A stretch of DNA of 64,000 bases from Phoronis australis (lineage: Eukaryota > Animalia > Phoronida): positions 2,214,795-2,278,794 of the forward strand of contig NMRA01000006.1 in NCBI GenBank assembly GCA_002633005.1. The letters are read 5' to 3'. Both the position numbers and the translations under genes were made by a program. Shown here in pieces: positions 223 through 55,765 of this stretch. Numbering within the stretch: the first letter of the stretch is position 1; each line of letters starts with the position of its first letter. Below the pieces are notes generated by a model. That model was not told the origin of the DNA. It was given only the letters and a program-made list of their open reading frames with translations, and searched no databases.

Positions 223-3200
223 TACCTGAATAGCTTCTCCTCCCTCGCCGTTGGTCTTGGACGCGTTTAACAGCTTGGACAGCATACCCTGCCTCAAATC
301 GACTGTATTCTCCAGCGTGAATTTAAGAGTTTCCAGGTAAGCTTCCTCGATGGTTGTGGCCAGAATGTTCATGTCCACACGCACGTCATTCTCTGGTGCA
401 CTCCACATCGTTGACGGCACTGCTGTTGCCATAGAGTCCGTCACAACAGTGGTTTCAATGGGAACAACCGCTGCCCGGCTAGCCTGAGCATTTAGGTTTC
501 CTGCACTCACAACACCGGGAGGAATAAATGCGGCACTGACATCAGTAGTGGTCATCTTGACCCGTTTGTCGTCAGGTGATTCTATCGTTTCTGGCGCCTT
601 GTACGGACGTTTTTTCAGCGGACTCCGAGTAAGCTGCTCGTCAGATTTCGCTGTTTGTTTGACTGTGGTGAGTGCAGTGTTGGGAACAATGACAGATTTG
701 ATGGGGACAGTGGGTGACTGGTGAAAGTCCATGACAGCAGGTGCGGCCGTGTTGACGACGGGTACCATCTGTGGCATCTGGCCTGGGGCAAACATCAGCC
801 TCTGGGGAGAGTTCAGTGCATTGATGACCAGCACCTACAGATGAAATAGAAAATGTCTTAATGTGCACCATGACAATACCACTGCTCAACATCAAAGGCG
901 GATGACAGCATAACATGGCTGAATATGCCTTGTCCGTGTGATCTACCGTTACGATTGTCACGTGACTAGGCGGATCAGGCAGTGTTGAAGCATCTCCATC
1001 CGACTCGAGTTGTGTTGGTACTGTGTCATGGATTGGACCCTATGAGACCTGTCCATTACAACTATAGGCATCTAACACAAGTGTAAATTACACTACGGTC
1101 AGACAAAATCCTAAAACTGAAAGGAGAAGAAAAACAACATTCAACCTGAAGAAAGGTAGGCGAACACTATATCCTGGTAATTAACTTGAAACCTTTTTGT
1201 CCATAGCAATATCAGGTCTTGGAAGGACCAATGACAAAAAGATGAAAAATTTGCAGGTGACGCATCACTCCACAAATAAGGCTTTTCTGACAGAAATATT
1301 TTTGTGTAATAAAATCTAACTGAAATAAACGTGTTTGCATGAATACAGTCAAATTAATCATAAAAAGAGACAAAAAGAGGAAACTGGAAAAAAAGAGCAA
1401 ATCAAAACCAAAAAAGAGGAAATCCTCTTAAAGTCGTGAAAAACATAAAGCATACATCGAGTCTGCTATTGAGAGAATCTAATTTTCTGTACAAAAACAA
1501 CGCTGAATTAAAACTTAATCGACGTATTTCAATCTGTTTTGGTGACACGTTCATGTACCTGCAAAAGAATGCTCGGGTATTCGGACTCACCGCTTGTGAA
1601 GACGATATGGGCAGCTGCTGCTGGTTTATTGTGTTCTGCGGAGTTGACAACTGTTTCTGGCTGTAGGTACTCTTGTTTTTTGGAGTCGTCTTGACACCGG
1701 CTCGGACTTTTTGTGACGTTTCATTAGGCGTCTGCCTAGCTCTTTCGAGATTTATCTGAAAAGGAGCCGCATCTAACCGTGACAGAGCGTTTTCAACGTG
1801 GCTCGTGTTCTTAACATATGGCTCAGGTATACTGAATGNCTGCTCAACATCAAAGGCGGATGAAATTAACTGTGAGATCAGCATAACATGGCTGAATATG
1901 CCTTGTCCGAGTGATCTACCGTTATGATTGTCACGTGACTAGGCGGATAAGGCAGCCTTGAAGCATCTCCATCCGACACAAGTTTTGTTGGTACTGTGTC
2001 ATGGATCGGACCCTATGAGACCTGTCCATTACAACTATAGGCATCTAACACAAGTATAAATTACAATGCAGTCAGACGAAATCCTAAAACTGAAAGAAGA
2101 GAAACAATGATCAACCTGAAGAAAGGTAATCCAGGTAATTAACTTGAAACCCTTTGTCCGTAGCAATATCAGGTCTTGGAATGACCAATCACAAAAAGAT
2201 GAAAAATTCAGGAGATGCATCACTCCACAAATAAGGCTTTTCTGACAGAAATATTTTTGTGTAGTAAAATTTAACTGAAATAAACACGTATTTGCATGAA
2301 TACAGTTGATCCATTCTTGTTGTTTTATTTACCTATTTATATTCTACATGAATACAGTCAAATTAATCATAAAAAGAGACAAAAAGAGGAAACTGGAAAA
2401 AAAGAGGAAATCAAAACCAAAAAAGAGGAAATCCTCTTAAAAGAGGAAAATTCCAAGTCGTGAAAAACATAAAGCATACATCGAGTCTGCTATTGAGAGA
2501 ATCTAATTTTCTGTACAAAAACAACGCTGAATTAAAACTTAATCCATGTATTTCAATCTGTTTTGGTGACGCGTTCATGTACCTGCAAAAGAATGCTCGG
2601 GTATTCGGACTCACCGCTTGTGAAGACGATATGGGCAGCTGCTGCTGGTTTATTGTGTTCTGCACAGTTGACACCTGTTTCTGGCTGTAGGTACTCTTGT
2701 TTTTTGGAGTCGTCTTGACACCGGCTCGGACTTTTTGTGATGTTTCATTGGGCGTCTGCCTAGCTCTTTCGAGATTTATCTGAAAAGGAGCCACATCTAA
2801 CCATGACAGATCGTTTTCAACGTGGCTCGTGTTCTTAACATATGGCGCAGATATACTGAATGTGATAACAAAGACGATTCAACAACAACGCACATATTGT
2901 GAACAACGGAGTGAAAAATGTAACTGAAGACGAAGTCCTGATGAGTCGAACATAAATTAGCAGCAGTATGCAAATTTTCTCAGTAGACATAATTCTGAAC
3001 ATATTTGATTTTGAGTGGCTTACAAAATTGAATGGAGACAAACGTCAAAGCAGAACTGACCTAAGTTTTGATGGTCAAAACCACTCGAATGCAGCCAATA
3101 AACCAAGAAAATGAAAAAATCCTTGGTGAAGGGCATACAGAGTGGCACAGACCTGTGACCCTACCTGCAGTTGAAGTTCTGAGGAGTCCGGCGCAGCACC

Positions 3201-6200
3201 TGTACTCGGCCCGCCCGTCTCCGCCTGTGTCTTCGCCTGCATCCTCATCAACAACTGCATGATAGAAGAGGCCTCACCCGGCTTGTCTCCGCTCGCGTTC
3301 AACTGAGATTCCAGTTTCTGGGCTAGGTCACCCTGCCCGATTTCACCAGCCACGCCTCGTTCTCCTACAGCCTTTAGCAGAGTGGGAAAGTCGGTGATTC
3401 CCGACGACTCAGCCTTGAGACTGAGGAGACCATGCAGTGCCTGGGCTGTCTGTGTGTCCTCAATGGTGCGACACGCCTCTGTGATCATCTCTCGCATGCG
3501 CCGTGACCTCCGACCCAGCTTGGCGGCTAAAAAGAAGGTAAAACTTAAATGTCTATTCAACAAACCTAAACTGTGAGAAATAGAGCAATCTCTGAGAAAT
3601 AAGATAGATGATGAGTTTTAAGTTTCATTACAGGTGCTGTGGAGTCAACCACAAACTGACGTTAAATTCACAAGAATGGCTGTGTTTAAACAAACAAAAT
3701 GATATAAGCAACCAGCACTTATATGATCATAGAAAGGGGAAATCAAATCAAACTAATACTCGCGTTACATCACCCGATGGTAATCATCTGATATAACCTG
3801 ACCAAATTTTGAGAACCAGTTTTCTCCACTGAATAATGCGCATCAAGCTGGTTCTCAAAATACGGGCATGTTATATCAGACTATTGCCTTAACCAATGGT
3901 TCTGCCTTGCAGTGAGGAGGCGGCACAGCTTAAAACGCAAGTCCAATACTATATCAAATTTCTTCTTTCTGAACTTGGCAAAACAGCAATATATGTCTAA
4001 ATGGCATTTTCACGAGTGTCTTTAAGCACAGGAAGGTGACAAAACTCCAATGTAACGGGATCGCGTGACTCACGCTTGTATGTAAAGTCACACATTTCAC
4101 AAAGCTCAGAGCAATAGTCAGACAGAAAATGCACACCCCGCATACACCTACAGTTAACATTAGTGCACAAGATGAGAACAAGAAAGAATCGTTTACCAGA
4201 GCGAGACATCCCGAGAGCCAAGCATTTTTGAAGACGGCAGAATTGGCAGCGATTCCGTGTAGTAACAGTTATCTCACAGTTTTTATTGGCATTGCATTTC
4301 TTTCTAGCTGGGTCACCAATCTCTTGCAAAGCTCGTCGGAAGAACCCCTAAAACATTTACGGACACAAGCTATAAGCGGAGTAATGGTAGATAAGAAAGG
4401 CGGGGCATTTACCAGATCTAGACATGCCCAGGGCCAGACACTTTTGCAGTCGACAGTACTGGCAACGGTTTCTAGTGATGACGGTCACCTCACAGTTTTT
4501 GTTGAAATAACATTTCTTTCTAGTCGGGTCGCCAATGTCCTGCAGAGCTCGCCGAAAGAATCCCTACAACGCAGAATTAACACAGAAAATTCGACATCCA
4601 GGGAGAGGGGAGGATATCATGCAGACAACGCTCTGGGAAAAGCCATCAACTGACGTCTTGGCACAAGTTGTGCAATAGCAATTAAAGATAATTATACCAA
4701 AATAGCTACGGAATTTGATGTTTAATGAATTTTTCAGAAGACAACGCTGGACTCCTGGCTACAATCATGTCAGACTCATACGAATACAGGCCCACATACA
4801 CGCATGTATGAAAACCAATCAAATCCTTGTGTGTTTATGCTAACTTACTGAATATTCACAAAAAGAAAAAGCAGTCGCGCTATTGGGTGGATAGTATATG
4901 CAAAAATACTTGGGTTCTATGCATAAACACAGAACTTCTGAACACATTTCGTTATGTATACACATATAAATTATAAGATTTTAGGTTTGAAGAATTAAGC
5001 GTTTTAATTGCAGTGAAGAAACATACTTTTGTTCTTTGTCAAATTCATACCAGGGAAGGAACATCATTGTCAATCTGCGAGATAGACTAAAATAGTGTAG
5101 CATTTGGAAACAACTGATCACAGAAAATGGACATTGGACATTTAAGCATGCTCACCTTACAACCTTCACATGCAAGAACTCCATAGTGTACCCCTGAAGA
5201 CTTGTCGCCACACACGAGGCACTTGGCACCAGCTGACAGGTCTTGCGCCTGTGCCTGCTGAGCCTGCTGTGCTTGCAGCCCTATCTGCTGGACGGCGACC
5301 AAGTACTCGGCATCGACAGGTGAAATCGCTGCTGTGCCATCACCTGCCTTCATTTGAGACAGTCCCGCGCTCACTGGCGCTCCTACATTAGCAGTGATGT
5401 TCTGAATCAGTGACACTGGTGTAACCATTGGTATCGTTGTTGCCACTGTTGCTGCAGTGCTGGCGTGTGTCTGTAGGAAGTCTGCTCTGTCATCACTCTG
5501 ACTGCTCAAATCGCCCACTGACTCGGTAGCCAGGTTCAGACCAAAAGAGGTGTTACTGTCGTCCTTTGTCGACAGCTGAATGTCGTGGTGCGACGTGACA
5601 TTAGCTGGAACGGTGATGACTGCCGGGTCACCATCTGGTTCTGGGAGCAAACCATCTCCCGGAACACCACTGCCACCTTCTGAATGGTCTACCAATGCTA
5701 GTGCCTCACGTTCTGTGGGGACGACCAGCTCAATAGATTCACTAGCCTCAGGTATGCTAGATACAGTCTCCTCAATGATACCACTAGTCTCTACCTGGCC
5801 GATTGTGTCAGCCTCCTCGGCAACCTCTTCCGTTTCCACGCATACCGTCTCCTCGATGACTGTACTTGAGGGTTCGGCCTCTGCAACATCCTCCTCGCGT
5901 TTTGCTACAATTATTGTAGGGCTGGGAACACCTAGAGATAGAGAGAACTAAAATTACAACACTACCCTGTCGGCTGTCAGCGTTTTTCTTGTAGGCATCA
6001 CATGACTTCCTTTTCAAACAGATCACTGGTGAGTGTCTCTGCAACAAAGTGGAGTGTGTTGCTCCCAATTACAAATAAACTCAGTTAATTAATGGGAATC
6101 CTGCACAGGTTCAAATAATTATGTGGGTTTCCTGGCAATACCGACAGATGTAAGACAAAACTCATAACAGGCATTCACCTACAGGATGTCCAGGGCGTTG

Positions 6201-9200
6201 AAATGGAAACCCAGTCTCAAATTCAGATACCCTATTAGAGCTGGGATGCACTCCTCAGCATTTCTCAAACTAAAGTAAACAAGAAAGCATGGGTGTCTTA
6301 TTTAACTTGCCAGCACCAGCTTAAATTAAAGCAAGACATGAATTTTAACGATGTTTAAATTGTCATTTCACTATTGAAAAAGATAGCTAGTGGACTCTAT
6401 GCAAGTTTTTTTCCATCACCGCCTAGAGCATACAATAAAAATTTCAAACCCATCCCAATCTATTTCCTACACAACGGCACACAAGTCAACTCGCCACACA
6501 GAACTAAAGGTCAAGGTTGAATTGTACATATGGCAGGCTCCTGCATTGTGTATATGAACTCATCTCATAACAACACACATCCAGGAGAAAAACATCAATT
6601 GACCTATGGTGTACAACATATGTCTAGGGTTAGAACAATTTAAGACAGCTAATAACTAAAATTAACCTTTTCACATTTTCCTAATTTCAAAAAGTTTATT
6701 AGGTGGGTGAAAATACAGCAAATATTTATATAATGCAGCTGTAACCCATAAACAATGCTAACAACGAAAATGTTTTTCTCAAAAATTTATGCTTACTCTG
6801 AATTTACTAGCAAAATTTCACGTGTACACCATATTAGGCATAAACTAAACAATTTTTACCATAATTCGATAATTTTCAACCACTAATCTACCATCTCCTT
6901 GCCAGTGTCTGTCAACGTCAGTGACGAATAAATCAAACAGGAAAGCAGAGAAAATGAATTCATGATATGCTAATACGAGAATACAGCAAAAAACACATTA
7001 ATTGTTGAAAGTCAATGACAGCCACACAGCTGTCGCTGAAACCCCACAACAAAGGAAATTAACCTCAACCTAAGGTCAGGGCCAATGCATCCATAACAAC
7101 TAATCCCTGGGGAGAATGCAGAGTCAAGTAGCAGCAAATTTGTCAACTTAAGCAACTTGCTAACAAAAAACATGACAAGGCAAGTACAAACCTAGCTTGA
7201 ACATAACTGATAAAACAAAACTCAACAACANGACTTCCTTTTCAAACAGATCACTGGTGAGTGTCTCTGCAACAAAGTGGAGTGTGTTGCTCCCAATTAC
7301 AAATAAACTCAGTTAATTAATGGGAATCCTGCACAGGTTCAAATAATTATGTGGGCTTCCTGGCAATATCAACAGATGTAAGACAAAACTCATAACAGGC
7401 ATTCACCTACGGGATGTCCAGAGCGTTGAAATGGACACCCAGTCTCAAATTTAGATATCCTACTAGAGCTGGGACGCACTCCTCAGCATTTCTCCAACTA
7501 AAGTACACAAGAAAGCATGGGTGTCTTATTTAACTTGCCAGCACCAGCTTAAATTAAAGCAAGACATGAATTTTAACAATGTTTTTAATAAATTGTCATT
7601 TCACTATTGAAAAAGATAGCTAGTGGACTCTATTCAATTTTTTTCCATCACTGCCTAGAGCATGCAATAAAAATTTCAAACCCATCCCAATCCATTTCCT
7701 ACACAACGGCACACAAGTCAACTCGCCACAAAGAACTAAAGGTCAAGGTTGAATTGTACATATGGCAGGCTCCTGCATTGTGTATATGAACTCATCTCAT
7801 AACAACAAACAGCCAGGAGAAAAACATCAATTGACCTATGGTGTACAACATATGTCTAGGGTTAGAACAATTTAAGACAGCTAATAACTAAAATTAACAT
7901 TTTCATAATTTCAAAAAGTTTATAAGGTGGGTGAAAATACAGCAAAAATTTATATAATGCAGCTGTAACCCATAAACAATGCTAACAACGAAAATGTTTT
8001 TCTCAAAAATTTATGTTTGCTCTGAATTTACTAGCAAAATTTCACGTGTACACCATATTAGGCATAAACTAAACAATTTTTACCATAATTCGATAATTTT
8101 CAACCACTAATCTACCATCTCCTTGCCAGTGTCTGTCAACGTCAGTGACGAATAAATCAAACAGGAAAGCAGAGAAAATGAATTCATGATATGCTAATAC
8201 GAGAATACAGCAAAAAACACATTAATTGTTGAAAGTCAATGACAGCCACACAGCTGTCGCTGAAACCCCACAACAAAGGAAATTAACCTCAACCTAAGGT
8301 CAGGGCCAATGCATCCATAACAACTAATCCCTGGGGAGAATGCAGAGTCAAGTAGCAGCAAATTTGTCAACTTAAGCAACTTGCTAACAAAAAACATGAC
8401 AAGGCAAGTACAAACCTAGCTTGAACATAACTGATAAAACAAAACTCAACAACATAAGATACACTTCAAAGCTTTCTATAGACTTTCCAAATCAATAAAA
8501 TTGATTTTAGGCAAAAACAAGTATTGAAAAAAAGAGACAATAGGAAATTACTGCCAGTCCTGCACACACAATATTCTGAGCAAAAATCAACTTTCTGGTA
8601 AGAACAACAGAACAGGATTTTATAAATTGCCAGTTAGTGACATGGTTTTACAGTCTTGAATCTCCATTTTGTATAATTTCCGCTTCAAATACTCGGTGTG
8701 TGCAAATTGCAAATAACTTAGAAAAAAATTATTTGGTGGTCAAATTTGACTGCGGCATGCCCAAAGCCCTTGCGAGTAATTATGGTAAACACATCACCAC
8801 TTTTAGACAAATATATTTGCCAAAATTGACCTTTTCGCCTATCTTCAAAGGCTTTAAACGTTGTTGTGAAGGCCCGAACCTTCTCAAAACTGCCTGTAGC
8901 TGAAACTTTAAAATGAGACAACAATTTATTTGGTGCTACATATCTTTTATGAAAAAAAAAAAACGGAGCTACCACCCCGAAAATTGATTTTTCTGCCACA
9001 TTTTGAAATTTATTTGAAACATCACTTGGCAGACTAGAGCACTATCCTACACAGCTTTGGAAAAATCTCACCACTTTAGGACACAACATGGCTGACAGGT
9101 GAAATTTTAATTTTCTCATTTTCCCATGAAATGTAGGTAAAATTCTTCAATTAGGGACAAAGGTAATTGCTAAAATTGCCTTATTTCTATTTTTAAAAGG

Positions 9201-18200: not shown

Positions 18201-21200
18201 TGAACAGGCATGAACACGGATGGTCTATGCCACGCTGGAAATATCGAAATAGTAGCAAATGATATTATAACAAATGGCATGATTGAAGAAGGAACCTGAA
18301 AGATTTCAATCAATGTGAACTTCCTATTTGTTTATCTTCTCCAGGCACTCTAACTACCAGGAACTACCATCAAACTCAACTAATGACCACAAGGGAATGA
18401 CATGTAGTTGATGTAATGCAATTCTTCACTTTTCTAGCACACAATACGACCAGCAAGCGAAATAGTAGTTTGTTGAATTTCTGCACCAAAAAAATATTAC
18501 CGTACGAAAATTTTAGTCTATAAGTAGCATTATATTGTTTAAATGTCATAACACAACACTTGGTAAAAGTGAGATACTCTCCGTATACGCCATATCTTAG
18601 TCATGTTGCAGGATCCATAGTTAAGTCTGAAAACACCTCTGTCCCTACCTGGGACTTTCTGCTAACTGTGCAAAAGTACCCGGTTCGAACCCCAGTTGGT
18701 ATAGAGATCTTTTCAAAGGTTTACTAGGTCACGTGATATGACCAACATATGGCGTGCTTGGATACTAATACTGTTCTTACATGTGAATATCAGAAGGGTG
18801 ATTCATGACAACGTAATTATAAACATTTGGTAAGGTTTCCACAAAATGTAGCATAGTAATCAGCCTTTAAAACGTGGGAAATGACAATTTGTCAATTATT
18901 TTCGTATGGAATTAATGGAGAGTTATGGTACTTAAAGGACAATGCATGCCACAGCAGATAGTGGCAAATGCACTTTACCAAGAATAGATACAAACAGGAA
19001 GGTATTATCGTCTCTTTAGTAGAAACCGTTAACCCATTTGCAATGTTTCACAAAAATCTGTCACAGTACTCCGAAGATACAGGGAAAACCATTAAAAATA
19101 AAGTTGGCACTAGAAGGCACACCTGTAGTCTGATCTGTCAGCAGTCGTTATTTTCATCAAAACACACTTGCCAAATTCAACAAAGCTCTAGCGAATGCAA
19201 ACAAAAAACCGGCACTTGGACTAGTATGAGGTACCACAGGCATCCGAAACGTCTGAAAATCATTATCTGTCCTCTTCCCAGTAAGGAACACGTACACCAA
19301 TTCAATGTCATCCTTAGATTGGTTTGGCCACTAGGTGGCACAGCAGAATACATCGAATCCACCCCAAAACATGAAAACGGTATCTTGTCCTAAACAGATA
19401 CCTATTTGCGAAATTTCATGACAATTCATCCAGGAATTGTGGAGATACAGAGTAAAATGTAATAAACTAGAATTACCACTAGAGGGCACAACGGCACTCG
19501 TTCAAGTCTTCCGATCCACGACTGGGGATGACGCATACAGTACACAAATAAATATGTTGGAGGATAAAAACGGGTTTTAAAAGCTTTCAATCATATTTTA
19601 AAAACAAAATGGTGCCACGTCTGCCATCTTGGAATCAAATCGTGACAAAAACCCCACAGTCTTTGTGAGCCTTTTTTTTTAGAGTTGCATGTTGTGTGCA
19701 AATTTCATGTGAAGCGAATGGCAAATGCAACCTGTTAGCATGCGTACAAGCATAAAGATCTTCATGGCAAAGCAACATAACAAAAGCAAGTTATGTACAG
19801 TAACTGTGACTATGAATGGTGTATTTCCTGGAACACTACAAACTATACACAACTGTCTATATATAAATAATATAATGCGTACATCTTGCATGTGATTTTA
19901 CCGTAGGTATAAAATCAATAGAGCTTTTTCCTGGCACAAAATTGTTGAAATACTGCTGAATGCATAATTCAGTACAACACCATCAAGACGTTTCTACAAG
20001 AAGTAGCTTGAGCACAGAGAATTGATTACTAACCAAGTGAATTCAACAGACTAATCTGAGACAAAAGCTTTCCCACTGACTGAACAATTCTCCTGGTTTG
20101 AAGACTTTCAACAAATGAGACAGTGTAACTCCTAGACTTAGGCTGCCAATGCAACTCCCCGGAAAATAGGCGGATAAAACTATAGAATTGCGAAATTCTT
20201 CTGCTGTGGAAAGGGTTAAACCCACTTTGGAAGAAGTAATCGTTGGAAGTAGCTCATGTAACTTACAGTACAAAAACATATACAATTTAGACTGCAAATC
20301 AAGTGTGCCATCTGGTGTTTAATACAGAAAACTAGAGATATCTGTAACATAGGTGCTACCAAGAAGAGTGTGAAACACAATGGGAGTAGGGACAGAGAGT
20401 CAACATTCTAGTTTCCCTAATGGGACAGAAACATGAATGAAGAATAATCATAAACTGATACCAATCAATATGTTCAACTGAAGAATATTTAAACTTCACT
20501 GGAATTATGAGTTAGACGTTCGCATCGAAAAGTACAGTTCTGATCTGTGAATTAGGAATTCGTGCATTGAACTTGAGTCAAACATCAACAAAATGACTAC
20601 CCTCTCATAACCATAAAGTCGCTGCATTGTTTTTCGAACTTGTCCCAGGTGAGCCAAACTCATCACACATGGGAACATCCCAACAACTTGCCGCGGCAAG
20701 ACAAAAGAGGTCGTGGCAAACAGTGAGTCGACAATATTAACTCCAACAGGAACAAGTCACGTGAGATGGTGCTGATAAAACAGTAGTTACCCGTAGTTCA
20801 TAATCATTACACTAGGGTCACCACCACCAGGAACCCTCACCCCACCAACAATCCCATGCTGGTGAACAACCTTCTATTCTCAATAGACGCATCATCTATA
20901 ATGCAGGGCACATCTAGTAAATATGTAGTGACATTCTCTCATTACTCGGACTAAAATCTTTATAACACAGGGCTACTCCTTCATTTCCCCTACTATTCAA
21001 TTACAAATGACAAAACAAACGAGGCAAGCGGATTCGTTCTTAACCCCGACCTGTGAGGTCAATTCATAAGCCCACCATCTCAGTAGACTCCTGATGTGTA
21101 ACTAAATAACACAAATGACCTCCTATCTAAATAGGTGGAGGCCTGGCCAATAACAAAAAGCTTGTAGCCTGCACAGACGTCACACAAATGCCAAGCATGA

Positions 21201-24200
21201 TTACCTATAACTAGAGGCTATTTTGCAAAAAAGGAGCAACAGGAAGCTATGTTGAAATCATGGCAGGAGTACATCCTGTGCAGGGACAAGGTCAAAAGCA
21301 CATGTTGATAGTAAGCACCTCAACAGAATNTGATAATGCAGGGCACATCTAGTAAATATGTAGTGACAATCACTCATTACTCGGACTAAAATCTTTATAA
21401 CACAGGGCTACTCCTTCATTTCCCCTACTATTCAATTACAAATGACAAAACAAACGAGGCAAGCCAATTCGTTCTTAACCCCGACCTGTGAGGTCAATTC
21501 ATAAGCCCACCATCTCAGTAGACTCCTGATGTGTAACTAAATAACACAAATGACCTCCTATCTAAATAGGTGGAGGCCTGGCCAATAACAAAAAGCTTGT
21601 AGCCTGCACAGACGTCACACAAATGCCAAGCATGATTACCTATAACTAGAGGCTATTTTGCAAAAAAGGAGCAACAGGAAGCTATGTTGAAATCATGGCA
21701 GGAGTACATCCTGTGCAGGGACAAGGTCAAAAGCACATGTTGATAGTAAGCACCTCAACAGAATATAGAACCACGTCATACACTGCCAAGAATAACTTGT
21801 CAAAGCCAGCCTCATTAATTGACATCGATAATTGTTGTTTTAATGAATTACCAAAGCATTCAAAACTTATCTCCAATTTAGCTGAGTTAAAATGTCTTAT
21901 AATGTCCGAGGTTTTAACACTATCTGTATTAAGGACAGGTGACTGGCTTATATCCTGGACTGGAAAAGTGTTCTGGAGAAGAATACTTGTTAAAGTTAAA
22001 GTACAAGAACTCAATGCTTTACAGTCAAGCCTACATGTTCAAAATAACTGTGCCATTCATTTTCAGAAAGCAATAACTAAAAACGTAACCTGTTGTTTTT
22101 AACGTTTAAATGACGACAGTGGGAAGTGAATGAAGGAAATGGACAAAATTTTCAAGAAGTTATTTCATATTTTACAGCACTACAGTAAAAATGCTGCAAA
22201 TGGGGAAGCTCAGGTCCAACAGTATCAAAGGATCTGTTTTGTTATAATGCAAAAAATCAAAATTGTTTATTGGTGAAAAAATAATGAACAGCAGGTGAAG
22301 TCAAAATCTAGTAAACACCCGCGAATATAGCCTCAAAACCAATCAATACACTTCGCTCTGAGATACTGTAGTAAGATTGTGAAAAATTAGCTTGATTATA
22401 AACCTCTACATTGCAGAAATGATTTTAGGAGTGTATCCCGCATCAGTGGCTCATAAGAATATTCATTAATGCAATGAGACTGTTTGACTTGGGCCAACTG
22501 GGACATTAAAACTGTGTCAGCAATCACGGTGTAATTTGTCTCACAGTGGGAAATGCATTGCATTCAGATTAGTAACGCATAGCAAGGCAGATCAGCTGAC
22601 CAAAATCCACCATCAGTCACAAAGAGTCAAACATGTTGTGAAAATACCAACCCTAACTGTGGATTTATGTGTTTTGTTGAAACTGAAATGCTGCTGGCAG
22701 GCAAAATTACACACAATAAAAGATGTTTGCCAAAAATCAAATCAAAAAAGGACAGAAGAACTAACATGATCCATGAGCCCACCAAGTTGATCCACAGATT
22801 TGAGGCAATCGGCCTCATGGCAGGTTGGCCGATAGCCTCAGACTGACCAAGCCTCGTTTTTCTAAAAAGATTCCTACAATGAAACCTAAACTAAATTTTA
22901 AACATGGCGCTGCATGTATATACTTTCTGTGATTTCGCCTGAGTCGCGACAGGAAATCCATGACAAGAAACACAGTGGTCAAAGCCATTCCGTTAAATTA
23001 AACAGTACGGTAGAATTTGAAAAAAATCAAAGCAAACAAGTTTAAGCCTAACTTTAATGCCTGAATACACTAGGCAAGACATCTATAGATGGCAAAGGCC
23101 TATGGGCAATGCTCAGCTTAAGTATTAATAATAAACTTCATGAACCAAAACAATTTCCTGTGAATAAAAGATTAGGGACAAATGCATTGACAAAACCGTG
23201 ACCATCTCTCTTTCAGTGATTTATCATAAATATGCAAATTATGTAGGTCATCTGAAACACGATCTGTGACACAGGTGTAAGAAAACACAACTGACTAAGG
23301 TCGTTTTACAACATGTGGACACGTAAATTGTGCTGGCAAATGTAAAAACATCAACCAGAGATCATTGACAAAAGGTCTGAATTTTTAAGCGTTCTAGTTT
23401 TCACTTAGTGTTTTTACTTAAAGTTATCTCCAGCTCAATAACGGATTGGTTGGCAAAGAACTCAGCAGGATCACCAACATTGCGTTGGTGGGCCAACTGA
23501 TGAAAAGGCATGATCCTGTAGGATACAACATATCAGAAGATTACCAGTTCACCATTGATAACAGTAGCACAACAGTACATTTCAAATCATGTCAGTAGGC
23601 CTACAGTCACACAACCTGCCACCAATATAACGTGTGAAAGAGCAAGAGAATATAAATGAATATTCATGATATGATCAATAATCAATCAAAATGTGTGCAA
23701 TCAAGGTACGAACCAAATGTTGACCCCATAGATGACCTAGTTAGCTGGGCAAACACATTGCTGGGCAACTTGCACTGGGTCTAGTTATCGGAAATACTTA
23801 CCTTCTTGAACACAAAAACACGGATATGCTGAACGTTAACCAATGTTCTACTCTCGCTTTCACAACCGCTTACATACGTATTTCGTTTGTCGACCGTAAC
23901 CACACACTACAGACTTCGATGCACTAGATATTTTAATGAAATAAGGAACTGTAAACTGAACCGAAGTGAATCAAGACTTTATCAACGTGTGACCCAGTTT
24001 CCTACACAAAGCTAGGCCACTGGCACTGCTTTCCATACGTCAAAAATAAACCACAAAGAAAATCATGACTTCACTGTCGCTTTTCAACGATATCACAAAT
24101 CGAACACATCGGGAGACATACAAACCTAGTAATCAAGCAATCGTTTAGTAAATTATGCGACGTAGCTCTACTTACCAGCCGAAATTTCATCGGCTTGTGT

Positions 24201-44136: not shown

Positions 44137-47100
44137 CTACAGCTCTTCTTTCGGTGGCATTTCAGGTGCCTCATCTCCCTCTTCACCTTCTGGTCCGTCC
44201 TCGACTCCCATCTCTTCTTCACCTTCTGCTCCCTCCATCTCCTAAGAATGGGAAGACGGCAAAATGTATGGATGACGACTTTTATTGAGATGTGCAAAGA
44301 AATTAGAATGCGTGAACAAACAACCTGCTCACTTACATTAATACGCGAACACAAAACAAACAGGTGTCACCTCGCTTAAATCAATTTCAAACCGTGCATT
44401 ATTTCTGTCGACGAATGCCAAATTGAAACTAACTGTCTTTGAAACAAGTATGAGCCAAAAAACACAAGACGATATCATGACCATTAAAAAGCATTACTCT
44501 TACAGAAAACAAAAACTGACCATTGTCCCAAACACACTTCAGCACTAATAGGGACAGAAATTGCTTACATCACACTACAACCTGGAGACAAACAATATGG
44601 CATGCGTATTCACTTACACTAGCACAATAGTTCAAACCAGCAAAATTCAACAAAAATAACCTTTTAAAATCTGATCCTCATGCTATAAATGCTAACCATA
44701 AAGATTAGCATTTTAACAGCGTTTCCAAAACCAGAGTTTAACGGATGACTTTCTGTCTACAAATATGACCCAATGTAATTTCCCACAGGGAACAGGCCAG
44801 AGTTAGAGACCCAAAAAGGTGGAATCCCCATGACTACCTCCATACGTCAACGTCACACATTCTGACCCTATTACAGGTCCAGATGAAAACAGGACAGTGC
44901 AATGTTCTTGTCCTGTCACCTCGTCAGCCTGCGTTATTTAATATGTTAGTGAAACATGCTCAAGTCAAGGCAGCACTTACTTCCTCCGAGGGTCCAGCAC
45001 CATCTTTACCACCACTCTCTAAGAACTTCACGAAACCGTCGAGCGTTCGCTCACCGTTGTAATCTATAACTTCCTGCAAGACAAACAGTACAATGGTTAT
45101 TAACGTGACCCGTAGCTTGGCTCCTGTAGCCAGAGGTGGCAGACTTGGTTAGCTCTCCAGGTAAAAGCACTGAATGCATGTGCACAGGCAGTAACAACCA
45201 ACTCTAAACAAGTGTGCATGAGGGTGTGTGTGTCTGTTTGTCAATGCAGAATAACACACTGAGCACTGTGGAGTGCAAATCATAAAACTTCAACTAAAAA
45301 TGGTAAAAAAGGACAAAGAGTGAAATGTACAGAGGGTTAACAAAAGTTTCATTTCTGTGCAAAATGAATACTTCGAAAATTCTGATAATAAATGCTTCCC
45401 TAGAGATTGTCAGAATATTTCTACTGTCACATGCCTATGTACTCTACACAACCATTCTGCCATATAAACCTACTACCAACTATGTGAAAGTACCGTCAGT
45501 ACGTACTTCAGATCCTGCAGGGAAGTATTTGAGTGTTGGGAAACTCTGCACTTTTACATCCTCCACCTCGTTGGCTGTTGAATCCATCTTGGCGATGACT
45601 ATATTCTCATGGCCAGCGTACTTCTCAGCCAATTGGTCCCAGATGGGAGCCAACTGTTTGCAGTGGCCGCACCAGGGGGCGTCTGAAAGACAATGGAAGA
45701 TGGGGCTCAAGGACCGTGCGACACCACACAGGGAGGCTGAATAACACAATCCCCTCTCCCCATAGTATCTCAAACCTATGGGAAATCTTACCCTGGTTAT
45801 GAAATCTTTCTTCAACAAGGAATAAAATGAAAGGGGAGAGTACTTTTCAGTAGATGACCACACCCTGCTTTGTTCGTAAAGATCTTCACGAAGGCAAGCA
45901 AGGGAAACTGTCAACATTCCAACATTACTAGATGTTCAAATGAAATGTGATGCAATACCACCATACTAAAACAACCAGAAATCTGTTCTTCAAATACCAA
46001 ACTTTGCAGTTAGTAGTTAGCATGAAACAATGCACACCTTCATCTAGAAGCTACTAAAAGGACGCTTTTGGGGCCTGTTAGTCAAAGCGTCTATTGGCTT
46101 TTGTCTATTGACTTTCGGGTAAAAATCAGTCTACGGATGGCTTAGCCTGGAGGGGTCAGGCTAAAGAAGGACGAGACATACTTACAGAACTCCACAAACA
46201 CGTTTTTGTCCTTGTTTTTGGCCACCTCAACGAAGTTCTTGCCGACGAGCACTTTGACTGGTTTGGCGTCCCAGTCTTCAGGCACCTCCTCAGACATCAG
46301 ATGAGCCTGTAGGCAAACAAATACAGTATGTTATGCAAAACAAGCACAACAAAATCCGTTTAACTTCGAGTGTATCATGTTCCAATTCTGCCTTGGGAGA
46401 AATACTTTGGCAGTCAACTCTGAAAAAATGCTTCTTTTCCTACTGAAGCAGCACGCATTTCTTTCCATTAATGATTTAAACTTTGCCACAGAATAAAATG
46501 TTTGCCACAACTTTAAAACTTCCAACAATGAACAATCACGATCAACTTCAGAGAGCCTGATGGGTGTTTAAGCATTTCTCAAATCAACACTTGTTCATAA
46601 TGAAGAGATCTAGAAAAGATGCTAATATTGAGCAAGGCCAGTTACAATTTTCCGTACGCATAAATGGAGATCTCGTCCAACAAGCTTGCATGACACCACA
46701 TACCTTAAGTTTGCCATCAAGATAGTCCTGCACGAATGACCTGACAGTGGCGGCGTCCAGGTCGCCGGACTCCGGCTTGAATTTGGTCATATCTTCTCCC
46801 AGATTGATGAGGCGCACAACGGGCACATTCTCCTTGGTCAGACCGAAGAACTCGAGGATACGCGAGTTGTCCTCTACGTCTGTGTCGATGTAGATGAAGA
46901 GAACTTTGCCCTTAAAATCCTTGGCCACGGACGTGAAGTCATCGAGCTTCGTCTTGAAGTCATCTGCCGCTTTGCTGACAAACAACAGGATGTGGTTCTT
47001 CACTTCGCCACCAAAGATCTTGGGTGCTGTCTGGATGTGGATAGAAGACAACCAATTACACCCATCCACATGACTATGGTGTACTGGGAGACTATTGAAC

Positions 47101-50100
47101 CCATAATGAAGCCGCGATAAAGAACAACAGTGGCTGAGATGACCTAGTTATCAGTCAAAATTTCGTCTATAAAGAACACGAGAAAAAAGAGGAACTATTT
47201 TTTCAACAAAAATGGCCTTTAATGTGCTCTATCACACACAAAATGCATGGAAATTTCATCCAATTTCATTCAACAACTTTGAAACCACCTGTGAACAGAC
47301 CAATCATGAAATGAAGATGGCCACATCTGCAATCTGTTTGCGTTCGTATCTACTGAATTGATCACGTGAAAAAAAAAATAACTCTGACAAATTCTCGAAA
47401 ATTTTTAAGCTTGGGTTCCTCAGAACACCATTAGGGGCTGTTCCAGTAAAATCTGTATGGGAGGGGGGGAAGGCACCTTTTTTTCGCACCCACCACCCAT
47501 ATTTTTCATTTATTTCTTCAGCCTACCACCCCTAATTTTTTATAAGTTTGAAATGCAACCACCCGTAATTTTTTTTGTCCTTGTGGTTGACTGCACAGGC
47601 GCTTGAGTTCCTCCATCACCACTAACGTCATTCATTACTAAGAAAACATGTTTCTTATATATGGTTATTAGCCATCGAGAAATTCGAGCACCTGTGGTAA
47701 AATGGTGTTATTTCCATGCCGATGAGGAGATGGAGGGAGTGAAAAAGTTGGAGCTTTTTGCAAGTTGCATTTTTGTTTCAGTTTTTGATTCTGTGCAGAT
47801 TGTNTGGATAGAAGACAACCAATTACAACCATCCACATGACTATGGTGTACTGGGAGACTATTGAACCCATAATGAAGCCGCGATAAAGAACAACAGTGG
47901 CTGAGATGACCTAGTTATCAGTCAAAATTTCGTCTATAAAGAACACGAAGAGAAAAAAGAGGAACTAATTTCTCAACAAAAATAACCTTTAATGTGCTCT
48001 ATCACACACATAATGCATGGAAATTTCATCCAATTTCATTCAACAACTTTGAAACCACCTGTGAACGGACCAATCATGAAATGAAGATGGCCACATCTGC
48101 AATCTGTTTGCGTTCATATCTACTGAATTGATCGCGTGGAAAAAAAAACAACTCTGACAAATTCTCGGAAATTTTTAAGCTTGGGTTCCTAAGAACACCA
48201 TTAAAGCTTTCAAATAAATAAATCTGGTCCGACATTAAATGCTCCACAATCTTTTTTTAATGTTTCTGTAAGGTAATACACAAGATGTCACACAAGATAC
48301 ACAACTGAGCACATGTTCCAAAGCACCCCTTGCGAATGCTCACCAGCATAGAGTCAGGCACTATAAGGAATGCAACCGTTACTTATGTCACACTTAGTAA
48401 GAACACAGATCCCTAGTTACCTTGGAGATGCATTTTTCCATGCTATTTGCTGTTCCTCCTGGTGTATAGTTACTAACCAAGGAACAATAGAAAAAGACAT
48501 GAACAGTCCAGCAAGGAGACTGCCTCTTGGCTCAGCATTCACTTCCATTGAACATACACACCCGTCCTAGTCACTACTGAACACAGGCTGTGTTGCTCAT
48601 TGGTGTTTGCTCACAGCCAAAGCAGAGCCAAGATTTGGGGCCTTCATGTCACATTCTTTTTGTTTCATGGACAGTCATCCTAACTAGAACAGTAACTAAA
48701 GCAAAAAATGTCTGTCCAAGAATCTTAATTTCTACTAAAGGTAACATCATCAACCGGTTGCTTTCCCCTTTAAGGTAAACAGATGCAACACACAGCACAG
48801 AGAGCAACTCACCTGACGATAACCTATCACCTCCTCCACGGATCTGCCCCACGAAAATCAACACGACATACTGCACAGGGAAACCAGTGCCTAATTTAGA
48901 CTCAATTTGACCTTTTGACAGTACACAACACGTAGTCGGCTGAGGATTGTAACCGAACAAATCAAAAAATGCTTTGGACCAAGTTCGCAATTTTTACTCT
49001 TTTCCTTCACGAATTAGCTACTTTAAGCTTAATGAAAATGATGTCGAATGATATCCAAAGGGTGTGAAAATGTGCAGTTGATGGTGAACAGGTTTTCGGC
49101 TCATTGCGTTCGAGTCTAAATTCAACTCTGGTTGGGAAATAGAATTACTTACTCCAGACAATCAGACAGACAAGACCACATGCTGTCACTGATAAATTTA
49201 CGGCAATAAAAATCATCCTCTGTAAAAACCTCAACTATTGATCTAGAAACTGTTTCATGCAACACTGGAATCATCTTGATCTTATCTCAGACTAGAAATG
49301 GTTTCTGAGATTCAAAAAATCTGATAATTTATTAATACTTGCCACCAAACTATGCAAGTTGACTTGACCTGGCAGGTCATTATATCAAACAAAAGCCCAG
49401 AAAATCGAACAAGTTCATATCATTTTAATAAGTGAAATTCAAAGGTTGCTTTTTGGCATGTTTGTAGCACTCCATGATAAGCAAAGGTCGCTAGAGTTGC
49501 AAGTATTGAGTTAGGAAACAGGACTTCGGACCCCGAGTGTCGGACCCCGAGTGTACTTCGCGGCTAACTTATAGGTGCTGCCCACTCAAACAAACAACTG
49601 AAACCTGACCAAAAAGCAGAGACCACAAGCACCGGGTGGCTCGGTCCCACATCCAACGGTCACAACTTGAGTTCCCTTAACAGTGACCACAGGCTATAGC
49701 CACCACAGACATGGGATTTCCGCATGCAAGTCTGATACCTTCCAATCTGGAGTAGACGAGCAGGGCCACGTGTGCACCCCCACCACCTCTCCCCACTCTT
49801 ACCTCCTGGGTGAACTCCATAACCACGGGCAGCTGGTTAGCCCGGATGAACTTGAGGATCTCATCGCTCTTCATTTCGCCATCAAAGTCGTTGCGGCCCT
49901 CGTCAAACTACGTTATAGCGGAAAACGAAGAACGTTAGTTAGAACAGAAAGACAAAGATTTGAACGACAGAGGCACGGCTGACTTACTTCGTCAGTGAAC
50001 TCTGAGACGAGGGGCAACATGTTGGCGTTGATAAACGTTTTGATATCGTCGCTCTTTAATTCTCCATCATAGTCGTTGCGGCCTTCGTCAAACTGAAACA

Positions 50101-53100: not shown

Positions 53101-55765
53101 AATTTTTGCAAACATTAATAATTTCGAAAACATATAAAATAAACTACTATCATGTACACGTGAAGGTGCGCATGTGTTGGCGTGCATACACGAGTGTGTA
53201 CATAACTTCTGGGTAATGACTATTGTGTGTGTCATGGCCATGTAGGAGTACTGTTATCAGGGTGAGTTATCGGTATCATTACAAATACTATCTACCATAA
53301 TTAGAATGTAAAACTGTACTTCATCATATTACAGATGTGAAGCATTACACACACCTTTAATACATTGTCATCTCATTACATCTCCAATTGAAAAAATAAA
53401 CAACTTTAATGATCCGTTTCTTTAACTTCATTAATATTAATGAGATTGTCTTTGACATTTGCAGCAATTTATAGAGAAGCTCTTTCTCTAGTTACAAACT
53501 AGGATTACCAGTAGGAAATTAGAAATGATTAAAGAAACAACAATGACCACCGATGTTGTGGCTGAAATTATACCCCCATACAGCGATAAGCTGTATACTT
53601 CTCAAATAGCACTGGCCTCCAACGTGGCTATAAAAAGTGTAGAACAACCCACATGTACCACTATACAAAAGAATCATTGCTAACAAAACACACTCAATTA
53701 ATCCTATTACGAAAACTGCCAACAAGGCAGGGAAAAAACATCTGACACCATCATAAAATTTATGACCACTAATCACAGGTACTACGTATTGTGCCACGTT
53801 GTCACTGCCATGGGCAGTCAATCACCACTTTTACCACTTAATTTCACCAGCCCTCTAGAATGTCCCTGAGACAAGCATCACCAACTCTGGTTTAAATCCA
53901 CAGTATGTTTTCTAATTGCAACAAGCCATATCGCATTGCTTACTATCTAATGTATTCATGAGACATTACGACAACTTTCAACAAATGCAATTCCCAACAC
54001 AAACATCTGGATTCGAACCGCTTTAAATGAATAAATTAACATTCAACTTTAGTCAATGGAACAGTAAAGTTTCTAGCCAAATGGTTATCTCAGCAGCTGC
54101 CTCCCTGACATGAAATGCCAATTAACGAAAATGTTCAAGCGACTTTGTGCAATACACTTACCACCGTATTCAACAGGTTTTTGGTTGCGGAAGAACTTGA
54201 GCGTTGGGTAGCCCTGTACTCCATACTTCTCACCCAGTTTGGTCTCCTCTGTGGCATCGACTTTAGCTAACTTTATCAGGGATCCCTCTTGCTTCAGTTG
54301 GCCAGCAGCCTTGGCATACTCGGGTTCAAGAGCTTTGCAGTGACCACACCATGGAGCATCTGAAAAGGTAAAACACAAACTATTGAACAGTGCAAATTGA
54401 TGTTCAATATCTTGTGCCTAGATTGGTAAATAAAATGAAACCAACGACTTAGAAAACTAGCAAAGTTTCTTCATAACATATACATGGGTGAGTTTTATAA
54501 GGTGTTAAGCAAACAAATGATTAAATAATAACTAGACAGTAATTTGCTCATTTTTATGTGGAAACGTGTACACAGTAGCAGAAAACAGGTTATCTAAAAC
54601 CTATAGTGAATTAAAATATCTGCATGGCTATCATTATCATCGCTGTCAATCACCATTATGTCTGGGTCATTCTAATGACAGAGTACACTTACACACAGGT
54701 GGTACATATCAGAAAGGCACTTGCATTCCAGGATACATCACATACAATTAAAACTTGTGAAACAGCAAAACCAAATGCAAAACTAGCAAAGCCAAATACT
54801 TAAACACTTTCAAAAAGGGCAATCAGTGTATCTATCTCACAACTTCCAATCCATATGGTCACTGGTTCTGATTGACAGAGGTTTCGACAATGCAAACCAG
54901 ATGAAAGCAACAAGAGAATTAGAATTGGATGCCCTAGACAAAAATCTCCATAGAAATTTAGTTCATTTAAACGAAAAGGCACAATTACAGCAATCTACTA
55001 CACCTATGGGTGGTTTAAATAGAATTAGAGCATGTGATTAGCTAGTCTGCTGATCCAAATGTCACAATCTGTTTAAATCTAACTGAAAACATTGAATAAA
55101 AGAACTTTTATTGGACTTGGCACAAAATTCCGCAAAGTGAGGAGAAAACATTGTACGGTAGTTGTAGCCGGTTGGCAATTACCGTTATGTAACAAGACCA
55201 ATTTAATTGGCATCTAGTATCATAGGCCACTATAAATATGCCATATGGCAATGCAAGTAAAGTGGGAAATTCAGATCAATGGAAAAGTGACAAATTTAAG
55301 GTAGAGGAATGTAATTTCTGAAGTAATGCGTGGTTCTTTGGTACTTGTTTCGATAAATCTTTAATTCTACAGAGGAAGCAAGAACAACCCAAAGTGAGTG
55401 TACAAACGTCGAACGTGACCCGGCGACAGTGACCTACACGGAATCAATAGGTCATCACCGAAATGACACTTTGAAACACCTTAATAATTGAACACAACTT
55501 AAAACAAACCAACATGATTTCAGACGTCAGTGCCACTTCAGTTGCAGTTAACAGTTTGCAATGGTAGTCACAACCAAAACCAAGGCAAGGGTCAAAGGAA
55601 AACACTTCGCTACTTACAGAATTCCACCAACACGTATTGATTTGCTGAGATGACTTCCTCAAAGTTTTTCTCTGTTAAGACAAGAACATCTTTCTCTTCT
55701 TTAACCTCAGCATGGATGATCACAGCACCAACCAGCAGACACAAGGAAAAAGTTGCAAGCTTCAT
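44137..55765 (-). CDS. P4HB: Protein disulfide-isomerase (PDIA1/P4HB), ~514 aa
   Basis: Exons 55765-55618, 54359-54162, 52951-52818, 51189-51052, either 50092-49988 or 49907-49803, 47030-46704, 46306-46186, 45682-45507, 45073-44981, 44241-44137. The protein has a signal peptide, two APWCGHCK active sites, an acidic tail and a C-terminal KEEL. Confidence 0.96.
47038..48203. repeat. Haplotype-like duplication (47038-47433 / 47805-48203) with an insertion in the first copy
   Basis: Both copies run tggatagaagacaacc...gaacaccatta; N at 47804. Confidence 0.85.
47434..47803. mobile_element. PIF/Harbinger-like element end, present in only one haplotype copy
   Basis: Begins GGGGCTGTTCCA immediately after TTA, where the other copy continues aagctttc. 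It is truncated by the gap. Confidence 0.5.
49803..49907 (-). CDS. P4HB: PDI alternative exon 5b
   Basis: aacgtag|[35 protein letters not shown]|gtaaga; 105 nt, phase 0-0. Confidence 0.9.
49988..50092 (-). CDS. P4HB: PDI alternative exon 5a
   Basis: tgtttcag|[35 protein letters not shown]|gtaagt; 105 nt, phase 0-0. Confidence 0.9.

Follow-up and report, generated by a model that had tools for sequence, protein, structure and literature searches.

One nuclear receptor gene in the window (the whole stretch of DNA that was analyzed, 64,000 nucleotides long) contains a single exon for the first zinc finger followed by two tandem, diverged exons for the second, here called A and B, and both of these exons are included in transcripts. 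It is very probable that the pair is real and that its members are mutually exclusive. The explanation that we favor, with a probability of about 0.55, is that the pair also alters function. Under this explanation, either copy of finger 2 would be spliced into the product of one NR1CDEF-beta gene, giving two receptors that share their half-site specificity and whose finger-2 surfaces for pairing with a second DNA-binding domain (DBD) or with a partner protein are predicted to differ. The features of the gene are as follows.

5156..5931, minus strand: exon for the N-terminal (A/B) region and zinc finger 1 (P-box CEGCK), with phase 0 at its end
4413..4563, minus strand: alternative exon A, for the end of the recognition helix, the linker and zinc finger 2; family-like D-box Y-F-N-K-N at 4495-4509
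4348..4412, minus strand: spacer intron of 65 nt, GT...AG, separating A and B
4197..4347, minus strand: alternative exon B, for the same region as A; derived D-box N-A-N-K-N at 4279-4293
3165..3526, minus strand: constant exon for the DBD C-terminal extension (AAKLGRRS...) and the hinge; acceptor present in 12 joint reads
226..834, minus strand: predicted later exon for a long hinge toward the ligand-binding domain, from tblastn/blastp similarity to orthologues

Gene layout and identity

Direct reading of the window gives two exons of 151 nt each on the minus strand, flanked by AG and GT and running from phase 0 to phase 1. The two homologous exons thus lie next to each other, agree in length and phase and have valid splice sites, the arrangement by which mutually exclusive exons are recognized. 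A preliminary description of this DNA had reported two tandem 151-nt exons with AG/GT sites and intact cysteines, and the same coordinates, cysteines and splice sites were found here. A recount of its figures gave identical values: 43 of the 50 residues are alike, and 26 of these 43 have codons that differ synonymously. At the nucleotide level, 113 of 151 positions are identical. Similarity between the copies extends only ~5 to 7 nt into the introns, in agreement with the earlier statement that the flanking introns are unrelated. The seven residue differences from A to B are D9E, T14A, Y19N, F20A, V26I, I29T and Y36F; the sharpest of these had been placed in the D-box (YFNKN versus NANKN), where Y19N and F20A indeed lie. 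The duplicated exon had been described as the second finger, which holds as far as finger 2 is encoded there, but A and B code in addition for the interfinger linker and for the latter half of the recognition helix (identical in the two).

Both exons pass the cut-off of the Pfam zf-C4 profile over positions 25 to 70 (52.3 bits for A and 53.5 bits for B), and the first-finger exon corresponds to profile positions 2 to 24. The presence of both C4 finger patterns (C-X2-C-X13-C-X2-C and C-X5-C-X9-C-X2-C) places the product in the nuclear receptor superfamily. When nine orthologous proteins were aligned to the window, all nine matched a single exon for finger 1 (5156-5224/5236) and two for finger 2. 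The first-finger exon is covered by RNA reads, and 4 joint reads link its donor at 5156 to exon B; its 5' boundary was set by an AG in the sequence, not by an RNA joint. The constant exon is 71% identical to Lingula over 69 aa, and the exon at 226..834 aligns to orthologues just ahead of their Pfam Hormone_recep domain. Orthologues carry a ligand-binding domain, and that of this gene would be expected past the start of the window.

Searches with exon A recovered ~55 proteins at 74 to 94% identity, after which identity fell to ~60% for HR3/RAR. These ~55 proteins come from molluscs, an annelid, a brachiopod, nemerteans and a bryozoan, with the best matches in Lingula (92 to 94%) and Capitella (92%). 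The two primers published for CgNR1CDEFb, when translated, give peptides within the oyster member of this set, a protein that the exons match at 82 to 84%, whereas the CgNR1CDEFa primers had no match in the collected group members. This points to the NR1CDEF-beta/NR1DEF orphan group, and on these sequence grounds the gene is an orthologue of the lophotrochozoan orphan receptor named NR1CDEF-beta in oyster. The group has been placed near NR1C-F in an unstable position, according to the available part of PMC4070562. The C-terminal extension of the DBD is nearly invariant, with one 12-residue segment found in 101 of 107 orthologous rows and its counterpart present in the window. As far as the accessible text of PMC4070562 and PMC5041327 goes, CgNR1CDEF-beta and MgNR1DEF have the P-box, a linker with three extra residues and the C-terminal extension in common with the window gene; orthologues of this type have one finger-2 version each, whereas the window gene has two. 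Oyster CgNR1CDEFb is among five receptors reported in the same part of PMC5041327 to be different between adult males and females.

Two other features of the window were recorded. An open stretch at 54088-54417 on the minus strand contains a WCGHC thioredoxin-type motif and probably belongs, as an exon, to a gene for a protein disulfide isomerase. The intron that follows exon B contains a short palindromic repeat (3779-3888) that looks like a miniature transposon; multi-locus RNA reads cover it to very high depth on both strands.

Transcripts and the basis of exclusivity

RNA reads came from three raw runs that carry the same species label, and a contig set was used alongside them; ~18 to 19% of each run was read, and joints were listed only when at least 3 reads within a run supported them. 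Exon A is joined to the hinge exon (4413>3526) by 12 reads (5, 4 and 3 over the three runs), and finger 1 is joined to exon B (5156>4347) by 4 reads (3, 1 and 0). Both joints have canonical ends and the strand expected for a minus-strand transcript. Finer read mapping placed 20 reads on the pair (11, 6 and 3), all 99% or more alike, with mates possibly counted twice. Bin arithmetic assigns 13 of the 20 to A and 7 to B (5, 2 and 0), giving B a share with a 95% interval of 15 to 59%; four reads end at the donor of B and three reach the acceptor of A. Depth over B stops at both exon edges, loose ends at the A donor correspond to the hinge exon in 5/5 and 4/4 reads, and the spacer bins (4361-4405) and the flanking introns had zero RNA depth in all runs. 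The contig set had nothing on A or B and says nothing either way.

The junction counts proposed in the preliminary description are thus filled in for 4413>3526 and 5156>4347. In the three runs, none of the joints from finger 1 to A (5156>4563), from B to the hinge (4197>3526), from A to B (4413>4347) or from finger 1 directly to the hinge was listed at the threshold. Junctions 5156>4563 and 4197>3526, including the onward partner of B, we infer from read edges alone. It had also been proposed that splicing of only one exon, ever, with decay of the other in relatives, would count against a switch; reads were found on both A and B. The corresponding claim that only one exon is used per transcript agrees with the reading frame, which forbids A plus B, and with the lack of a listed A>B joint, although the absence of A>B among 12 A-donor reads bounds such splicing only below ~26%, and nonsense-mediated decay (NMD) would hide such transcripts. 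There was no sign of sample-specific exon choice among the three runs (B in 5/11, 2/6 and 0/3 reads; Fisher P = 0.37 and 0.52), where the counts are small.

In-silico splicing leaves the frame open for finger 1 plus A plus hinge and for finger 1 plus B plus hinge. When A and B are joined, a stop follows 11 codons past A; when the spacer is retained, it follows 18 codons past A, both much as described earlier; skipping both exons also leads to a stop. Exclusivity may therefore be set mainly by frame: at 151 nt each, inclusion of both exons or of neither would give a premature stop and NMD, and because double inclusion shifts the frame, NMD probably enforces exclusivity. Both NMD and a short distance from donor to branch point are recognized routes to mutually exclusive exons, and the steric limit of ~50 nt is stated for vertebrates in the available portion of PMC7969005. 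A motif scan found a branch point-like CTTAT in the spacer, and the A of this predicted branch point is 40 nt from the donor of exon A, so that it may add steric help to exclusion. This contribution is only possible, since an intron of ~75 nt is spliced in the orthologous gene at one relative locus (L001). Competing intronic RNA pairing, as in docker/selector clusters, was sought between four pairs of regions, and no duplex exceeded shuffled sequence (11 to 26 of 40 shuffles were as strong).

The frame also bears on the idea that A and B are used together in a three-finger or two-DBD receptor. Such architectures have precedents, in the 2DBD receptors of lophotrochozoans (bioRxiv 10.1101/2023.05.09.540016) and in androgen receptor variants with a duplicated exon 3 (PMC7602609), both as given in the parts of these sources at hand. 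The combined product would run out of frame into the stops given above, and there is one finger-1 exon, no listed A>B joint and no depth in the spacer, so we regard joint use as exceedingly improbable. The preliminary description had itself named a second first-finger exon as the mark of an ordinary 2DBD gene; the window has none.

Age, selection and distribution

The two exons differ at 28.5 of 36.2 synonymous sites (pS = 0.79) and at 9.5 of 113.8 nonsynonymous sites (pN = 0.083; Fisher P of ~4e-15). Thirteen of 17 fourfold sites differ, and the differences by codon position number 8, 3 and 27. Neutral simulations never kept the amino acid changes to seven or fewer (0 of 20,000 at each of 38, 60 and 100 mutations). 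The silent divergence of A from B (26/43) is as large as that of A from orthologues of other lineages (18 to 29 of 40 to 45, at 11 loci), which makes the duplication old in silent-site terms, undatable from such data. Together, these comparisons support an old tandem duplication with both copies under purifying selection, as had been suggested earlier. A short nucleotide tree joins A and B as sisters (support of 0.81), with a branch of 0.29 for B versus 0.06 for A; this is a weak tree, built on 150 nt that are too short and saturated for dating.

The longer branch of B is in keeping with a different account, in which B is a minor, partly relaxed copy heading to loss or a weak or dampening isoform that has no selected role. 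Its lower GC3 (0.44, versus 0.56 for A), its family-breaking changes and the absence of a B read in run X3 fit this account as well. However, the cysteines, helix residues and splice sites of B are intact despite saturated synonymous sites, and about a third of the reads on the pair fall on B, and so we judge the account improbable.

Assembly error is another possible source of such a pair, as A and B could be alleles or haplotypes set in tandem by the assembly. The window has four other tandem duplications at N joints, 86 to 99% identical, which indicates that this assembly does join haplotypes. One of them is a 1-kb duplication within the same gene (882-1838 and 1840-2862, 86% identical, with one N between) that holds two copies of a candidate coding exon (~2583-2780 and 1558-1760), both open in frame and with few differences; it probably represents two haplotypes joined by the assembly, though unusually divergent ones. 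The others (6000-8454, 20898-21764 and 47038-48203) are 96 to 99% identical at single-N joints, as is typical of uncollapsed haplotypes. Junction reads cannot separate alleles from tandem exons, and run X3 has only A. Against an allelic origin, A and B are 25% divergent in nucleotides with saturated silent sites, whereas reads compared with the neighboring exons show scattered single-letter differences; furthermore, reads match both A and B at 99% or more, no N lies between the copies, the sequences on either side of them are unrelated, and the spacer is bounded by a donor and an acceptor of its own. We therefore consider an allelic origin of the pair very unlikely.

Comparison with orthologues indicates which copy changed. 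Positions 1 and 2 of the D-box are FY (65) or YY (53) in all 118 orthologous protein rows (40 of them distinct); rows that lack a GFFRRALQ start were left out of this count, among them the fragment P0059, in which the two positions are YF as in exon A. Among 31 distinct exons from 43 orthologous genomic loci, all 31 have YY or FY. Exon A keeps the aromatic pair as YF, and exon B has Asn-Ala through three nonsynonymous changes in two adjacent codons. Because every row has two aromatics there and A keeps them, B is the derived copy, and the constancy of the two positions over several phyla indicates that they are constrained in NR1CDEF-beta. D-boxes vary freely between receptor families. Outside the D-box pair, B lies mostly within the range of family residues. 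Residues unseen in 54 tabulated rows are E9 of B and F20 and I29 of A.

No second finger-2 exon was found at any of the 43 orthologous loci, of which 13 extend from finger 1 to the hinge; finger 1 is present in 29 of them and the hinge in 20. These loci are synonymously as distant from A as B is, and close relatives of the source animal are outside the set. The check on related genomes proposed in the preliminary description was thus made at these 43 loci and leaves the duplication undated. In 12 protein clusters, with up to 15 members considered in each, 73 of the 101 listed members hold the segment, with one version per cluster and no second finger-2 version. A B-like D-box was likewise absent from longer proteins (60 matches), from near-length proteins (6 matches), from the best 150 of 2122 cluster representatives and from the best 80 of 138 metagenome contigs. 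Taken with the 43 loci, the exon pair looks restricted to the lineage of the source animal.

Some of the matched proteins, such as P0033, P0056, P0138 and P0194, repeat finger 2, but the D-box is unchanged in the repeat and the proteins have the appearance of faulty gene models; P0001 and P0002 are tandem-repeat read-throughs. Three loci (L005, L021 and L039) have no intron between the zinc fingers, which closes this kind of exon swap to their lineages; otherwise, the 151-nt exon is conserved. Two HR3/ROR-like genes (L063, 2019-2063, and L057, 975-1004) have, just downstream of the finger-2 exon, a sequence that partly repeats the 3' end of this exon and is followed by GT; these repeats are possibly alternative donors or decayed partial duplications.

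Possible functions and comparison with known systems

The P-box sets the half-site, according to the available part of bioRxiv 10.1101/2023.05.09.540016. The second zinc module together with the D-box forms the DBD dimer interface, as described for RXR on DR1, Rev-erb on DR2, TR/RXR on DR4, RAR/RXR on DR5 and GR on IR3 in the portions of PMC4314640 and PMC10242635 that could be consulted; the same portions give RXR Arg182 as an interface residue. Under the favored explanation, isoform A would do the ancestral job and keep the ancestral hydrophobic contact. Isoform B would have lost or changed that conserved contact, so that it might occupy paired half-sites less cooperatively or prefer another partner or spacing, and it would still be able to occupy single half-sites. 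A further change, I29T, falls at the presumed position of Arg182. There are heterodimers that form without the D-box (PMC5398557, available part), and should this receptor bind DNA as a monomer by way of its conserved C-terminal extension, the D-box may be of no consequence for binding.

That possibility leads to a reading in which the exons are mutually exclusive and their products equivalent, both copies being kept since each takes a share of the transcripts, with the D-box of B having drifted in a monomer binder. The lack of sample-specific use, the fact that five of the seven differences are conservative or found in orthologues, the score of B on the general zf-C4 profile, which is as good as that of A, and the absence of a B-like exon from every relative examined all fit equivalence. 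The aromatic pair is conserved in all 118 rows from molluscs, annelids, brachiopods, nemerteans and a bryozoan, however, and the radical changes of B are adjacent and confined to that pair, so that we regard equivalence as plausible yet somewhat doubtful. The favored explanation of two functionally different receptors can also be extended to a regulated choice between an ancestral aromatic and a derived polar D-box, which would let one receptor alternate between two modes of binding (as a cooperative dimer or as a monomer, or with two spacings or partners) and between two sets of target genes, leaving half-site specificity and the ligand pocket untouched. This extension we put forward tentatively, as rather unlikely.

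Nuclear receptors usually diversify their DNA-binding mode through gene duplication. If choice between A and B is regulated as outlined, this would be the first natural nuclear receptor with a dimerization finger switched by mutually exclusive splicing. Since the two versions have a common promoter, P-box, hinge and ligand domain, they would amount to a natural controlled experiment on the D-box and the finger-2 surface, and the pair suggests that two aromatic residues kept across several phyla in a lophotrochozoan orphan receptor serve a function. Annotation normally shows one exon alone, and similar cases may therefore have gone unnoticed in the genomes of other invertebrates. What limits the impact is the apparently narrow distribution of the pair and the little-characterized role of the gene.

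The preliminary description knew of no mutually exclusive finger-2 exons in nuclear receptors. The literature searched, including the accessible portions of PMC12111275, PMC7570057 and PMC4327956 and with most subscription papers outside its reach, likewise held no nuclear receptor case in which homologous finger-2 exons are swapped. A human catalogue (PMC8373072, in the part available) that covers 236 substitutions between tandem-duplicated exons includes TCF3 and FOXP1 but has no row for NR0-NR6, ROR, RXR, RAR, ESR, THRA, THRB, PPAR, HNF4, VDR or PGR; AR was outside the names checked.

Related systems differ from the pair in the following respects, as far as the available parts of each source describe them. 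The 2DBD receptors also have duplicated DBD sequence in a lophotrochozoan receptor, but they carry two complete DBDs per chain, with distinct P-boxes (bioRxiv 10.1101/2023.05.09.540016), whereas each chain made from the window gene would have a single P-box and a single finger 2. The window gene does not encode a second complete DBD, with a finger 1 and a P-box of its own, in the same frame; with one finger-1 exon and A plus B out of frame, the distinction from 2DBD receptors drawn in the preliminary description stands. In the AR variants with a duplicated exon 3, sequence is repeated (PMC7602609), whereas A and B swap a diverged, intact finger 2. Skipping of exon 5 in FXR-alpha alters the finger 2 region by deletion instead of a homologous swap (PMC11758954), and the T-box isoforms of molluscan RXR alter a dimerization element through splicing by insertion, again not by a swap (PMC5398557).

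Closer counterparts are found outside the nuclear receptors, again as given in the parts of these sources available. Exons 18 and 18b of FOXP1 (PMC11701043; listed in the supplement of PMC8373072) are, like A and B, a duplicated alternative exon inside a DNA-binding domain; FOXP1-ES alters the motif that is read, whereas the base-reading helix of A and B is identical and the pairing surface alone differs. Exons 18a and 18b of TCF3, which give E12 and E47, are tandem, of the same size, ~74% identical and mutually exclusive within the DNA-binding domain, as are A and B, and the choice between them changes dimerization preference and so DNA binding (PMC6120717). TCF3 is a bHLH protein whose exon pair is vertebrate-wide and has had its function and regulation shown, whereas A and B encode a C4 zinc finger, are apparently lineage restricted and are known from sequence and RNA reads. 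Duplicated, mutually exclusive exons for DNA-binding domains are already known in other transcription factor families, and the nuclear receptor family would be new to this design.
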